Positions 48,152-54,599 of a stretch of 64,000 nucleotides of DNA are shown one piece after another. A program made the translations under genes and the position numbers. The notes under the pieces are model-generated. The model searched no databases. It worked only from the letters and a program-made list of their open reading frames with translations, and had not been told where the DNA came from. Every line of letters starts with the position of its first letter. The first letter of the stretch is position 1. The stretch covers positions 1,612,001 to 1,676,000 of the forward strand of contig CM126235.1 in NCBI GenBank assembly GCA_052327205.1. The letters run 5' to 3'. The DNA is from Somniosus microcephalus. Lineage: Eukaryota.

Positions 48152-50190
48152 GGGCTCTAACAATTCTTTAAGATCTTCAATTCTCTGAAGTACTGTAGTG
48201 CAGTCGAGCTGAACCAACAGCAGAAAAGCAATCATTAATTCAAGGTGCTTCAGCAATCATGTCATTGCAATTCAGTTCATGTTAACTCTGCTTTAATTCT
48301 ATGTTAATGATGAGATGCTCTTTAATAACAAATTGAAATGAAGGAACAATGCAGAAGAGATAATTATAAAAGAATCTGAGTGATTACGTTTTCTAGTAAC
48401 ACTTAAACCATTAGCTGTCCCCTCCTCCGACATTTTAATTGTCTATAAAAGGCTTTCTTGTCCCTTGTTGAGTGCGGGAATATATCCAACATTTTAACCT
48501 AACAGACTGGTTCAATGAGTTAGGGAAAAATGTTTTTTAATTCGTTCCTGGGATGTGGGCGTCGCTGGCAAGGCCGGCATTTATCCTAGTTGCCCTTGAG
48601 AAGGTGGTGGTGAGTGTAGTGTATGTAACCGTTCCACCTTTAAGAGAACTATTTTAAGAGTTGCACTACTTTATCTTGGCTGCTGTATACTGTAATACCG
48701 GCGGTGACCACACCGGTATATAAGTGCTGTGTAATGATTTATTGGGCAGTTCCGCCCTGACCTTCAACTAGTAAAGTCCTGTTAAAGTTTACTCTTGTGG
48801 TCTGTGTAGTAATTCTCATTATAACACACAGACTTAACAGTGGCGACGAGTACGATCTTACCCTGCGGCAGAGATTATCCAAGGCAGTTTAACGGGCGTC
48901 GAGAAGAGGCATCCGCCCTCACCATTCTGCTGAGAGAAGACTCGGGTCTGCAGAGCAACGGAAGAATTCTAACACGAAGCCTTCCATCAGCAACAGGCAG
49001 GATCGTCCCTTCTATCACGGTGGTGGGTGAGCCGATCAGCGACGAGAAGCAAGTCGGCCACGTTGACTGTGAGTAGGGGAGAAAAAAAAAAAAAAAAACG
49101 GAGGATATAAGGGCGGAGAACTCGACCACGGCCAGGGAAAGGAGCCGGACAGAAGTCGGGGCCAGAAGCGCTGAGACTGGGGCAGCGTAGGCACGGAAGC
49201 CGCGGTGAATGCAAACGCAGCCGGTGTGAGAGACCGCAGCGAATGCAAACGCAGCCAGTGTGAGAGGCCGGGCTGCAAGCGGGCTGGGAGACGCAGCAGC
49301 GTCGAGAGCAAGCTCGACTGCGACCGGTGAAAAAGGCCGGGCAGCTACCGAGGCCGCGAGGCGCAGCGACCGGGACAGCAAGGCGCGGGAGAAAATAAAA
49401 AAAATTTAAAAAAACGCGGCGAACTCAGCCGCAGCCGGGGGGGGGGGGAAAGGACCGGACTGCAAGAGGGGCTGGGAGGCATGATTGAAAACCGCTGGGG
49501 AGGGCGAATGCAGCAATACGGCAATCGCCGTTACAGCCAGCGGGAGAGATAGAGCCCGAGCGAGCGGGAGAGACAGAGCCTGAGCGAGCGGAAGAGAGAA
49601 CGAGACCGAGCGAGCGAGGGAGAACGAGACCGAGCGAGCGAGGGAGACTGTGCGAGCGAGGGAGACCGAGCGAGCGAGGGAGGACGAGACCGAGCGAGGG
49701 AGACCGAGCGAGATTTCCGCCCAGCGGCTTACAGCAGCTTTCCGCAAAGGACCAAGAGCTGGAACTGTCCGCCGCCAACTGGTTGCCCCCAGCGCCCGGT
49801 TGCCCCTGTCAGGAAAGGGAACAAGGAACTCAATCAGCTGTTCTCGCGCTTTCAGAATAAACTGAAGCCGGCGCGCAGGCTGCGAACCCCGAAAGCCAGC
49901 GGTCGTCGCCCGAGGGCAAAGCTTACCCCTCCCGCCCGAGGAAGAAACGCGGGAAGCCGCCATTTAGGCGGGGAAGAAGACAAGCACGGGAAACTGCCAT
50001 TCTCGGAGGCGGGGAAGAAGACAAGCGCGGGAAACCGCCATTCTCGGAGGCGGGGAAGAAGACAAGCGCGAGAAACCGCCATTCTCGGAGGCGGGGAAGA
50101 AGATAAGCGCGGGAAACCGCCATTTTTGAAAAAAAAAAGTTAAAGAAAAAAAAAAAAAAATTCCTTTTGTTTCTCAAAAAGATTGCAAAG

Positions 50191-51300
50191 ATGCCTAAGC
50201 GTGGTAACATCAACGATTTCAATCCCGATGTGGAAGATTGGGCCACGTATGTAGAATGCATAGAAATATATTGTAAGGCTAATAAAATATCAAATGATGA
50301 TAAAGCATTAACCTTACTAAACTCAATGGGTGCGAAGACATACGGGCTATGGAAGCATCTTCTATCACCAGCTAAACCGACGGATCAGACTTTCGCTAAT
50401 ATTGTTGCTGTCCTGAAGGATCATTTGAACCCCACACCGCTGATGTTAGCGGAACGATTTAAATTTTATGCGAGAACGCAACTGAAAGAGGAAAGCAACG
50501 CGGAGTACTTAATTGAACTGCGTAAGCTAGCGAAATACTGTCAGTTTGGGGAAAGACTGACAGAGGCACTGAGAGACAAGTTCGTGTGTGGGTTGTCAAA
50601 GGAAGGAACACAAAAGCGACTGCTCGAAGAGAATGATCTTACACTTGATAAGGCTGTCACTATTGCAGCATCGCACGAAGCCGCAGCGAGAGGCACTGTG
50701 GAAATGCAGCTGAAGGCAGCGGTACTCAGCGTGGATCAAATGGCTTCGGGTACAACGAAATGTTATCGTTGTGGGAAGACAACACACGATCAGAACCAAT
50801 GCTGGTTTAAAAACCAGGAATGTAGAAAATGTGGCAAGCTTGGTCACATAGCTAAAGTATGCCGGTCAGGAAAGAAGACCAGCAACAAAAAGTCACCGCA
50901 GGAAAAGTGCAGCAAGGTACACAAGGTGGCTGAGAAGAGTTCGGATGAACAGAATTCGGATTCAGACTCCAACAGCAAGGAACTGGGTAGTCTGAGAATT
51001 CACAATGTGAGTAAGGAAGCTGACCGACAAACTATCTGGGTCGCACTGCAGATAGCAGGAGTCCACGTGAAGTTGGACTTGGACACCGGATCGGCGTTGA
51101 CGGTCATGAATAAACAAGATTACAAAAAGTTATTCACACATATTCCCCTATGGGATACGAAGCTAGTATTGCAGACATACACGGGGCAAAGAGTATACCC
51201 CATCGGAAAGATAAAAGTCAAGGTAAGACCAGCCCATGTGCAAAAGACAAGTCTAAAATGGACTTGCAGACTAATGATGGAAAAACAAAGGAGCGCATAA
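50191..51300 (+). CDS. gag: Gag plus truncated aspartic protease
   Basis: [46 protein letters not shown] and [19 protein letters not shown]; retroelement homology stops near 51226. Confidence 0.92.
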
Positions 51301-51740: not shown

Positions 51741-52709
51741 GAAGATGCTGCAGAGATCAAGTTTGTTGCTGAAAGCGCTACTTCCAGAGCTTTGCTTCGA
51801 ATTAAAGAATTGCCAGTTAAAATTGTGAAACCCTTGAGAGAGAAGATTGACATGGAGAAACATCGTGTCATTTTCGAATGCAAGGTTTCCAGGTCAAATG
51901 CTGCTGTCAAGTGGTATTACAAAGACAAAGAGATTCATCCCAGTAATAAATATGAGATTGTGAGTGAAGATGTGTACAGGAAGCTCGTTATTAATAATGT
52001 CGCTTTTGAAGATGAAGGCAACTACATGTGCGACGCCATAGATGACCAAAGCACAGCAAAGTTATATGTAGAAGAGCAATCAATTGCCATCATTAAACCC
52101 ATATGTGATGTGGAAGTGTCAGAGCCAAGTGACGCCATTTTTGAGTGTGAGCTTTCAGTTGCTGACGTGAAGTCTCCAAAATGGATACTAAATGGTGAAA
52201 TTCTTCATGCTTCTGAAGATGTGGACATTGAGCATCGTGGCACTATTCATCATCTCACTCTGAAAAAAACAACTTGTAAGATGACCGGCTTGCTGCAGTT
52301 TATTGCAGGGAAATCAAAATCTGAGGCAAGGCTGACTATTAAAGAGCCTCCGTCAAAGGTAGTCAAAGAACTACAGAACATTACAGTGGAAGAGAAGCAT
52401 TCTGCTACTTTGAGCTGTGAGTTTACACTTACTCCCAAGATGGTCAGATGGTACAAAGATCAGAGCTTAATCGAATCTTCTGACCGTTACAAATTTAAAC
52501 AAAATAAGAATGTGATAGAACTTACCATTACAAATCTCACACCCAAAGACTCTGGTGAATATAGCTGCAAATCAAGTAATGCACAGACAGCAGCCACACT
52601 CACAGTTGAAGCTCCAAAAATAGAAATAATAAACCATTTGGAGGACGTAGATACTGAGGAGGACAGCAATCTAGTATATTCATGTGAGTTGTCCCATGAT
52701 GATGAAGAT
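51738..52709 (+). pseudogene. OBSCN: Captured intronless obscurin segment (3 complete and 2 partial Ig-I domains)
   Basis: EIKFVAE..KELPVKIVKPLREKIDMEKHRVIFEC..YRKL..VEEQSI..MTG..GKSKSEARL..LSCEF..SCELSHDDE is colinear with obscurin as recalled (EIQFVAE..KELPV..RDKIAMEKHRGVLEC..EEQSI..SCELSHEDE). Confidence 0.88.
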
Positions 52710-54599
52710 GATGACTCATCTGAACCATTATCACCATTTCCAGGTCATGCACGTGGTCCCTCTGAACTGAGCCAAATCAGTCTGGAAGTAGGAAAACTTC
52801 CCAAGGTACTCGAGCCTTTAGAAGTCAGCAAGGCTGGTTCTGAAGTTACGAAAGTTCAAGCTGTTAAGTCCAGTGAAGGACTATTGGATGAGTCACCCCA
52901 GCAACGTGAACCTACTACACCACCGAGAACTACTACACCACCGAGGCGTTATCCGGACCGAGTCAGGAAGCGCAGGCGGCGCCTCCGTAGAGACTGAATC
53001 TGTGAACTGTTTTCCGCAGAGACTGAATCTGTGAACTGTTTCCCGCAGAGACTGAATCTGTGAACTGTTTTTACATGAAGTTGGGTATATATGTTATGAT
53101 GTTATGTTTAATGGGGAATAGGTATATTGTAAGCTAAAAAGGGAGGATTGTAGTGCATGTAACCGTTCCACCTTTAAGAGAACTATTGTATGTAACCGTT
53201 CCACCTTTAAGAGAACTATTTTAAGAGTTGCACTACTTTATCTTGGCTGCTGTATACTGTAATACCGGCGGTGACCACACCGGTATATAAGTACTGTGTA
53301 ATGATTTATTGGGCAGTTCCGCCCTGACCTTCAACTAGTAAAGTCCTGTTAAAGTTTACTCTTGTGGTCTGTGTAGTAATTCTCAATATAACACACAGAC
53401 TTAACAGTGAGCTGCTTTCTTGAACCACTGCAGTCCGTGTGGTGAAGGAGCTCCCACAGTGCTGTTGGGGGGGGGGGGAGTTCCAGGATTTTGACCCAGC
53501 GACGATGAAGGAACAGCAATATATTTCCAAGTCAGGATGGTGTGTGACTTGGAGAGGAACTTGGAGGTGGTGGTGTTCCCATGCACCTGCTGCCCTTGTC
53601 CTTCTAGGTGGAAGAGGTCGCGGGTTTGGCAGGTGTTGTTGAAGAAGCCTTGGCGAGTTGCTGCAGTGCATCTTGTAGATGGTACACACTGCAGCCACGG
53701 TACGCTGGTGGTGGAGGAAGTGAATGTTTAAGGTGGTGGATGGGGTGCCAATCAAGCGGGCTGTTTTGTCCTGGATGGTGTCAAGCTTCTTGAGTGTTGT
53801 TGGAGCTGCACTCATCTAGGCAAGTGGAGCGTATTCCATCACACTCCTTACTTGTGCCTTGTAGATGGTGGAAAGGCTTTGGGGAATCAGGAGGCGAGAC
53901 CCTCATTGCAGAATACCCAGCCTCTGACTAGCCACAGTATTTATGTGACTAGTCCAGTTAAGTTTCTGGTCAATGGTGACCCCCCAGGATATCGATGGTG
54001 CGGGATTCAGTGATGGTAATGCTGTTGAATGTCAAGGGGTGGTGGTTAGACACTCGCTTGTTGGAGATAGTCATTGCCTGGCACTTGTGTGGCTTGAATG
54101 TTGTCCAGATCTTGTTACATGCGGGCATGGACTGCTTCATTATCTGAGGAGTTGTGAATGGCGCTGAACACTGTGCAGTCATCAGCAAACATCCCCACAT
54201 CTGACCTTATGATGGAGTGAAGGTCATTGATGAAGCAGCTGAACATGATTGGGCCTAGGACACTGCCCTGAGGAACTCCTGCTGCGATGTCCTGGGACTG
54301 AGATGATTGGCCTCCAACAACCACAACCATCTTCCTTTGCGCTAGGCATGACTCCAGCCAGTGGAGAGTTTTCTCCCCCGCTTCCCAATGACTTTAATTT
54401 TACTAGGGCTCCTTGATGTCACCCTCAGTCAAATGCTGTCTTGATGTTAAGGGCAGTCACTCTCACCTCACCTCTGGAATTCAGCTCCATTGTCCTTGTT
54501 TGGACCAAGGCTGTAATGAGGTCTGGAGCCAGTGATGTAGTTGGGCTTTCATTGAACTTTATTACACATTAACTCTGTTAATCAGTGCCTTAGAATAAT

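Follow-up and report, generated by a model that had tools for sequence, protein, structure and literature searches.

Probable capture of a circular STK10 RNA by a pol-less Ty3/Gypsy family in Somniosus microcephalus

The 64,000-nt stretch of Somniosus microcephalus DNA analysed here (the window; GCA_052327205.1, contig CM126235.1, positions 1,612,001 to 1,676,000, forward strand) contains a damaged member of a non-autonomous Ty3/Gypsy family, in which pol is replaced by intron-less pieces of the host genes STK10 and obscurin (OBSCN) (Table 1). It is likely that this family originated from the capture of an STK10 circle, acquired its modules stepwise and spread in a helper-dependent manner under selection for an open reading frame.

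The window element and its pol-bearing relatives

As originally predicted, the element shows paired LTRs, a GTGAG target-site duplication (TSD), a motif resembling a primer-binding site (PBS) and a polypurine tract, and the TG...CA termini and short TSD are those of Ty3/Gypsy elements. The LTR pair was recovered as a 226-nt repeat (48617-48842 and 53184-53409, 99% identity); the two LTRs differ by three mismatches in 223 positions, and a 33-bp duplication occurs in the 3' LTR only. The candidate PBS starts with TGG and may match tRNA-Ser; the 64-kb window contains no tRNA gene to set against it. In 14 of 15 other copies of the host repeat that were compared, the flanks join with a 5-bp overlap. 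GTGAG is thus a true TSD, in support of the original view that the element integrated normally within a LINE. Over 833 bp, the right flank shares 83% identity with an ORF of LINE type that gives an RVT_1 match. A Pfam search with the short LINE ORF adjoining the element gave nothing, and the LINE was recognised via a longer copy.

Table 1 Features of the window element. Positions refer to the window.
Feature	Position	Strand	Basis or remark
TSD GTGAG, left	48610..48614	+	inside minus-strand LINE, 3' part
5' LTR, TG...CA	48615..48839	+	repeat comparison
PBS-like motif TGGCGACGAG	48841..48850	+	putative; sequence inspection
5' leader with tandem repeats 49535-49712 and 49945-50125	48851..50190	+	
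gag with CCHC zinc knuckles	50191..51042	+	domain search
Aspartic protease, shortened by private 268-bp frameshifting deletion	51043..51226	+	
STK10 exon 9, nt 241-430	51222..51411	+	97.4% to host
STK10 exon 11, nt 38-124	51408..51494	+	host exon mapping
STK10 exon 12, complete	51495..51674	+	host exon mapping
Back-splice junction, exon 12 donor to exon 8 acceptor	51674..51675	+	1,144 genome matches
STK10 exon 8, 5' part	51675..51744	+	host exon mapping
Obscurin cDNA, five consecutive spliced host exons, in frame inside STK10 exon 8	51734..52710	+	
STK10 exon 8, 3' end	52704..52733	+	host exon mapping
STK10 exon 9, nt 1-159, ending at the 11-nt motif where the family cargo starts	52734..52892	+	
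Native pol (integrase) tail, in frame, with stop codon	52887..52997	+	
Polypurine tract	53136..53146	+	
3' LTR with 33-bp internal duplication	53149..53406	+	repeat comparison
TSD GTGAG, right	53407..53411	+	

The gag region yielded a zinc knuckle, the protease was recovered in part, and reverse transcriptase (RT), RNase H and integrase (IN) are absent from the window element, in agreement with the original prediction. The joint between protease and cargo (51222-51226), which had been taken for the capture junction, is a private deletion found in one of 79 junction-bearing loci compared, and it also removed the original capture junction. Furthermore, STK10 exon 12 of this copy contains a premature stop (51606-51608), and its pol tail is a mosaic from two helper sub-lineages.

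A genome search with the diagnostic back-splice junction gave 1,144 matches (control 0). The element therefore belongs to a family that has propagated to ~1,100 copies and is not the one-off chimera that had been proposed. Pol-bearing relatives were found in 20 copies, which the chimera outnumbers ~50 to 1. The parent is a single-ORF gag-PR-RT-RH-IN element of ~5.3 kb, of which about 2.7 kb of pol were replaced by STK10. The order PR-RT-RNase H-IN without env was found in two pol-bearing copies, and the best solved relative is the Ty3 Gag-Pol (E 2e-78). In the pol-bearing parent type the ORF stops ~85 bp upstream of the 3' LTR. With two CCHC knuckles, one ORF and a short LTR, the family is reminiscent of the Mag clade; a literature search for Mag elements with tRNA-Ser priming found none.

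The STK10 cargo and its template

Sequence searches matched the cargo to shark STK10 and obscurin, and exon mapping placed introns of both host genes at precisely the positions joined in the cargo, which upholds the original claim that it consists of these two genes without introns. The span given for it, 51226-52820, does hold host cargo but stops short of the actual end at 52892. Identity is 94.7-100% to the host STK10 exons and 97.1-98.6% to the five host OBSCN exons. Host OBSCN was found by a degenerate motif; the protein-search lists were filled with element copies. A single shark gene bearing both STK10 and Ig exons was ruled out, the genes being located on different contigs (C8 and C5, respectively).

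The STK10 pieces stand out of gene order and are circularly permuted. In the family, the insert starts in the middle of exon 9, runs through exons 10-12, continues with exon 8 and returns to a motif in exon 9. The joint between exons 12 and 8 is exact to the base, with the host GT and AG flanking the joined sites, and the full insert measures 1,245 + 11 nt, which corresponds to one complete turn of a 1,245-nt circle. This exact joint and the one-turn length indicate that the STK10 template was circular and not a linear mRNA. There is no poly(A) tail, the cargo running into the pol tail. The joint between exons 9 and 11 is an in-frame deletion common to family lines, located at a 4-nt microhomology. 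Cargo entry and exit both sit at one 11-nt motif. No longer stretch is identical between pol and the spliced circle, and no other identical stretch reaches 11 nt. In the pol-bearing relatives this motif lies at the start of RT, and a 6-8 nt portion of it is present in the integrase tail. An empty parent with a single motif, to which the circle was added without loss, was ruled out, as 20 of 20 non-STK10 matches continue into RT.

Very likely, the element particle also packaged a circular host RNA made up of STK10 exons 8-12. During minus-strand synthesis, RT would have jumped from the integrase tail to the circle at the 6-8 nt microhomology, gone round once and jumped back at the 11-nt match to the RT start of the element. 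RNase H may have destroyed the template behind RT and thereby forced it to switch back once one lap was complete, an explanation of the one-turn length that we favour only slightly. The template-switch capture of the original prediction thus stands as far as the joining of host RNAs at microhomologies is concerned, but the STK10 template was very probably a circle instead of a linear mRNA.

Inverted repeats in flanking introns often accompany circles. Between STK10 introns 7 and 12 there are none (12 introns compared pairwise; four other pairs matched). Two RNA runs contained 70 and 60 back-splice reads versus 184 and 128 reads of the element-specific deletion, so that element transcripts account for every back-splice read and no excess points to an STK10 circle. 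Both results would also fit a linear STK10 RNA in which exons recur, whether through trans-splicing or through splicing across exons 8-12 duplicated in tandem in the genome. Such a template would yield the identical exact junction, and non-colinear junctions can have other origins, as Dong et al. 2016 warn (PMC4897178). Nevertheless, we regard it as improbable: each exon of host STK10 is single within 160 kb of the locus, and sequence of exon 7 or 13, which could appear on a linear template, is absent from 30 of 30 mapped copies. Moreover, entry and exit would be independent, yet they coincide within 11 nt; by a rough hand estimate, coincidence within 15 nt has a chance of ~2-3%. Far less probable still is the model implied originally, namely ordinary STK10 mRNA and chance template switches, one of which hit exon ends. 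The element demonstrably switches often at microhomologies, but all other junctions (8 of 8) are intra-exonic and lie at microhomology, whereas the back-splice joint falls on both splice sites and its partners have only 2 nt (AG) in common at the RNA level. An assembly artefact, the misassembly for which the original prediction had allowed, has a negligible probability and is refuted for the family: the junction matches, more than 1,100, are dispersed and differ in their flanks and TSDs, and the family joints recur in raw RNA reads as well as in contigs labelled as two other organisms.

Later captures and selection for an open frame

The original prediction had STK10 and obscurin captured together. 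Instead, STK10 came first, obscurin entered STK10 exon 8 later, and a fragment of KMT2A, the third captured gene, was added in a sister line and is not part of the window copy. Divergence from host STK10 is 1.4% in copies with the full circle (n=15), 2.3% in deleted copies (n=12) and 3.7% in deleted copies with obscurin (n=30), and thus climbs in the inferred order, which supports the succession of full circle, deletion and obscurin. The obscurin junction has 364 matches in the genome, and the insert comprises three whole Ig domains, which score in Pfam, and two partial ones. Atlas and PDB searches with the KMT2A fragment were uninformative. The cargo modules have been exchanged among lines as well as among helper LTR types.

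To assess selection, private and shared variants were compared in 62 insertions, mostly top-ranked matches and not a random sample. Shared non-splice junctions are in frame in 8 of 8 cases, where microhomology gives a null of 0.38-0.57 per junction, versus one of four private large rearrangements. Stops at non-CpG sites make up 13 of 600 private and 0 of 266 shared variants (p=0.013); for the cargo alone the numbers are 7 of 371 and 0 of 157 (p=0.11, not significant). Small indels shift the frame in 22 of 28 private but only one of five shared cases (p=0.021). Five stop codons are common to 2-5 copies, every one at a CpG site, which we read as recurrent mutation. The ratio of N to S changes in the cargo is 271:93 for private and 110:47 for shared variants (p=0.33). 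In gag it is 89:43 and 32:34 (p=0.013), a signal that could stem from recombination with helpers, and the protease showed no selection in this comparison (p=1.0). Taken together, the in-frame joints, the unshared non-CpG stops and the neutral drift of the cargo point to selection for an open frame and not for the cargo protein.

A Gag-PR-cargo fusion protein that benefits the element or its host, with its coiled coil and Ig domains kept for function, would be in line with a single ORF of at least 1,034 codons in 11 of 29 top-matching sister copies, with the uninterrupted frame in 6 of 21 position-ordered copies and with the three whole Ig domains. It would also fit the RNA data, as family reads are sense and strand-biased and carry the element-specific deletion joint (at the level of the family, not of the window copy). 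We nonetheless consider it unlikely, since the N:S ratio of the cargo is equal in shared and private variants, the cargo was repeatedly lost and replaced mid-domain and the captured part does not contain the kinase domain. Protease cleavage is established for Ty3/Gypsy polyproteins, and where the protease is intact it should release the cargo from Gag.

Rather, the chimera, itself non-autonomous, may spread by parasitising its relatives that bear pol. Propagation would depend on translation that starts at gag and continues up to the native stop close to the 3' LTR, either through escape from RNA decay or through translation-coupled packaging; the chimera copies probably supply Gag, and the cargo would be a frame-keeping filler and not a selected protein. 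We think this fairly probable. The combined scenario, in which a circle limited to one lap by RNase H produced a pol-less element that outdid its parent and became a serial, frame-selecting collector of STK10, obscurin and KMT2A, seems marginally more probable than its opposite. If true, the family would preserve germ-line circRNA as a fossil record and act as a natural exon-shuffling machine filtered only by the open reading frame. With hundreds of copies per intermediate in a three-gene shuffling series, it offers a natural test of reading-frame selection against protein selection. It also predicts that LTR-captured circles comprise one lap with a short terminal direct repeat. In addition, ~1,100 transcribed copies with 96-99% identity to STK10, hundreds resembling OBSCN and some resembling KMT2A are expected to skew gene annotation, RNA-seq counts and the calling of circRNAs within this lineage.

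Comparison with known systems

In acutely transforming retroviruses, pol is replaced by intron-less host sequence, gag and the oncogene are fused in frame and propagation depends on a helper. The analogy with oncogene transduction drawn originally applies to the in-frame gag fusion (at family level; it is broken in the window copy) and to helper dependence, but the cargo is without purifying selection. Unlike those viruses, the shark element is germ-line, its parent lacks env, and its cargo is scrambled, non-catalytic and neutral in N:S. Literature searches for circSTK10 and for STK10 in a shark retrotransposon found none, and no precedent for the one-turn anatomy, the scale and the serial capture was found in the literature searched. 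Precedents are known separately, in circRNA pseudogenes, LTR-mediated retrocopies and maize Bs1.

The circRNA-derived pseudogenes of mouse circRFWD2 comprise 33 high-confidence copies of varying length, are associated with MMERVK10C-int LTR sequence (Fig. 1 legend) and arose by a mechanism called mysterious (Dong et al. 2016, PMC4897178). The shark family resembles them in its non-colinear exon-exon junction, missing poly(A) and LTR association, and likewise has a splice-site-exact junction and no exons from outside the circle. In contrast to circRFWD2, it resolves both element-circle junctions, has a pol-bearing parent and a one-turn length, amounts to ~1,100 copies, carries its cargo in frame with gag and gained more genes. 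For the route of circRNA retrotransposition left open by Dong et al., it thus offers switch points, a parent and a one-turn insert, and a candidate mechanism can be named: co-packaging in an LTR particle, with template switches at microhomologies.

In the LTR-mediated retrocopies presented in the main text of Tan et al. 2016 (PMC5131818), the internal ORF is partly replaced by host RNA at microsimilarities. Both LTRs are kept, and multi-gene chimeras, sense transcription and further non-autonomous rounds are described there. The shark family shares the intron-less RNA, the microsimilarity switches, the sense co-transcription and the further retroposition. The cases in that text are low-copy and the word 'circular' is absent from it, whereas the first template of the shark family was very probably circular and its chimera exceeds the parents found ~50 to 1. 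Maize Bs1, finally, is an LTR element with pieces of three host genes, a hybrid ORF and 1-5 copies (PMC5131818 and PMC5408686, passages on Bs1). The shark family is similar in its three host genes, its hybrid ORF and the switch points common to copies. Bs1, however, is a plant element for which these passages report no circular template, whereas the shark intermediates survive in hundreds of copies.

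STK10 exon order in the cargo

The host STK10 gene was located on contig C8, where each of its exons is present as a single copy within 160 kb (exon numbers were assigned in this analysis, with exon 3 deduced from a gap). The least-derived cargo of the element family starts at nucleotides 146-149 of exon 9, continues through exons 10, 11 and 12 into exon 8 and ends with nucleotides 1-159 of exon 9, with 98.4-100% identity to host STK10 in the two copies aligned. The end of exon 12, where the host gene continues with GT, meets the start of exon 8, where the host gene has a preceding AG; not a base is added or missing, and the window copy carries the identical junction. 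Sequence of exons 7 or 13 was found in none of the 30 mapped copies. Both cargo ends lie at the 11-mer TATTGGATGAG in exon 9, which the pol-bearing parent carries at the start of its reverse transcriptase (RT) and which is the only exact match of at least 11 nt between pol and the spliced circle. A 6-8 nt portion of it occurs in the integrase tail of one parent sub-lineage.

This arrangement makes it likely that the STK10 cargo represents one turn of a circular RNA. Inverted repeats linking STK10 introns 7 and 12 were not found, which counts against a circle. RT probably jumped from the integrase tail onto a co-packaged STK10 circle, copied it once around and rejoined the element where RT begins; as RNase H of retroviral RTs degrades the template behind the enzyme, the return switch would be forced after a single lap. 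Exons 8-12 comprise 1,245 nt, or 415 stop-free codons, and such a circle (locus L053), a multiple of three without a stop, could in principle be translated round endlessly. Separately, STK10 introns contain distant Gypsy elements (65-70% over gag), one of them directly upstream of exon 8 and in the sense of the gene.

Coordinates of features in the window and in host sequences
Feature	Sequence	Position	Remarks
Exon 12-exon 8 junction	window	51674/51675	
Tandem duplication, 33 bp	window	53149-53216	3' LTR only; also in the 5' LTR of many sister copies
Interspersed-repeat pair	window	47487-48149 and 54904-56000	opposite orientation, either side of the locus; arms 72-86% complementary
Short MITE-like element	window	46807-47380	32-nt terminal inverted repeats; internal 86-nt direct repeats
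Distant Gypsy element, STK10 intron 7	C8	167208319-167213275	
Distant Gypsy elements, STK10 intron	C8	167131000-167152000	
Host KMT2A segment	L145	1047-1527	

Family size, parents and later captures

In the 6.4-Gb genome, all 40 cargo matches scored, of at least 40, showed 98-100% identity. A 25-nt motif spanning the back-splice junction (at most two mismatches) gave 1,144 matches and its reversed control none; the STK10-obscurin junction gave 364. Parents were sought with a degenerate motif placed where RT begins and designed to leave out the usual cargo continuation; 20 of its 24 matches run on into RT and four into STK10. The parents are approximately 5.3 kb long, with gag and pol in a single ORF (roughly 1,350 codons; PR-RT-RH-IN), and Ty3 is their nearest solved relative. 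Cargo copies outnumber the parents found by roughly 50:1, a ratio between two motifs of unequal stringency that leaves more distant helpers outside the count. Mean LTR divergence is 1.4% for STK10-only copies (n=19), 1.5% for copies with obscurin (n=15) and 0.5% for parents (n=8). At L077, L115 and L047, family members are inserted in tandem with, or nested next to, related elements or fragments of pol. L023 (C1115) and L027 (C8) are near-identical including their flanks and are probably the two haplotypes of one locus, assembled separately.

Of the 21 exact matches to the junction that come first on contig C1, which give class proportions only loosely, six contain the full circle and seven an exon 9-11 deletion (one with an additional private deletion). 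The deletion is combined with a third cargo in two copies, with obscurin in four, and with shortened obscurin plus the third cargo in two. The obscurin cargo shows 97.1-98.6% identity to five consecutive host exons on C5, spliced together without their introns, with both ends mid-exon. The third cargo (481 bp; L125, L128, L130, L136 and L075) matches a giant exon on C26 at 97.5-98.3% identity; the named relatives of this exon are KMT2A, and an FYRN match lies 5.6 kb upstream of it. This cargo is flanked in frame by the element on one side and STK10 exon 9 on the other and contains one Taspase1-type site, the motif QVDGADD (described as such in PMC3343046). Since it is confined to one exon, its RNA origin is not provable. 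L128 also has a private 361-bp insertion within STK10 exon 12. Divergence from host STK10 climbs from the full circle (1.4%) through the deleted form (2.3%) to the deleted form with obscurin (3.7%). The KMT2A module is found both in copies that have obscurin and in copies that lack it, and either LTR type can accompany the cargo classes; the lines therefore exchange sequence among themselves and with helpers.

Transcription and the reading frame

We compared two RNA runs (24% of one and 31% of the other), whose species label may not be that of this genome, with the host exon 8-12 region. The back-splice was covered by 70 and 60 reads and the element-specific deletion by 184 and 128, while joints containing exon 10 totalled 1 and 10. 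The excess of deletion reads and the near-absence of exon 10 indicate much stronger transcription of deleted copies than of the host gene. One run was strongly sense-biased (e.g. 167 versus 5 over exon 12); DNA carry-over would produce neither this bias nor the lack of exon 10. Deleted copies account for all back-splice reads, and the two runs gave no sign of a present-day STK10 circle, a second point against the circle. The back-splice and deletion joints also occur in contigs that carry two other organism labels; the family thus extends beyond a single label.

Selection was analysed in 62 distinct insertions, mostly top-ranked matches, excluding sites that differ in at least 90% of copies. 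All eight shared non-splice junctions are in frame, compared to one of four private large rearrangements. By copy, the frame is kept at the entry junction (54/54), exon 9-11 deletion (44/44), obscurin junctions (33/33 and 28/28), short form (3/3), KMT2A junctions (5/5 and 5/5) and exit junction (54/55). Microhomologies shared by these coding sequences preserve the frame in 38-57% of cases, which gives eight of eight a probability of about 0.002-0.004 at 0.45-0.5, rising to about 0.01 at the upper end. Non-CpG stops are found among 13 of 600 private and none of 266 shared changes (p=0.013; cargo alone p=0.11), all five shared stops being at CpG sites, and frameshifts make up 22 of 28 private but one of five shared small indels (p=0.021). 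Amino-acid changes are equally represented among shared and private variants in cargo (p=0.33) and protease (p=1.0); in gag they are fewer among shared variants (p=0.013), a signal possibly imported from helpers. We read this as an open frame that counts and a cargo protein that does not.

The window copy and known systems

The window element is genuine. As predicted, it has paired LTRs (226-nt direct repeat, 99% identity, 3 mismatches in 223) and the 5-bp duplication GTGAG at both ends; flanks join with a 5-bp overlap in 14 of 15 uninterrupted host-repeat copies. It lies inside a LINE: across 833 bp, the right flank shares 83% identity with an ORF that has an RVT_1 match. Pfam searches recovered a zinc knuckle, an incomplete aspartic protease, three I-set domains and a PKK coiled coil, whereas RT, RNase H and integrase gave no match. 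The closest named relatives of the cargo are shark STK10 and obscurin, and both parts of the cargo are intronless as proposed. In this copy, a frameshifting deletion of 268 bp is private (1 of 79 loci); the copy also has a premature stop and a pol tail that is a mosaic of two helper types. The suggested capture of two host RNAs by template switching is partly supported: both cargoes are as identified, but the STK10 stretch is probably one turn of a circle, and obscurin was added in a later step. The probable capture of a circular RNA and the large family it founded were absent from the original prediction and emerged here.

In mouse, 33 LTR-associated circRFWD2 pseudogenes have been described with the mechanism left open (PMC4897178, main text). 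PMC5131818 describes LTR capture driven by microsimilarity, multi-gene chimeras and 1-5 copies of Bs1, and its main text makes no mention of circles. We found no report of this family in the non-subscription literature; a one-turn anatomy in mouse may be present in the supplements of both papers. The likening to oncogene transduction fits the in-frame gag fusion and helper dependence but not a selected cargo protein, and the family is not a transforming retrovirus. It rather works like a Bs1/Tan-type retrocopy and has the sequence characteristics of a circRNA-derived pseudogene. Its main value would be that the one-lap capture of a circular RNA, resolved here, founded a very large, still transcribed and serially capturing family.
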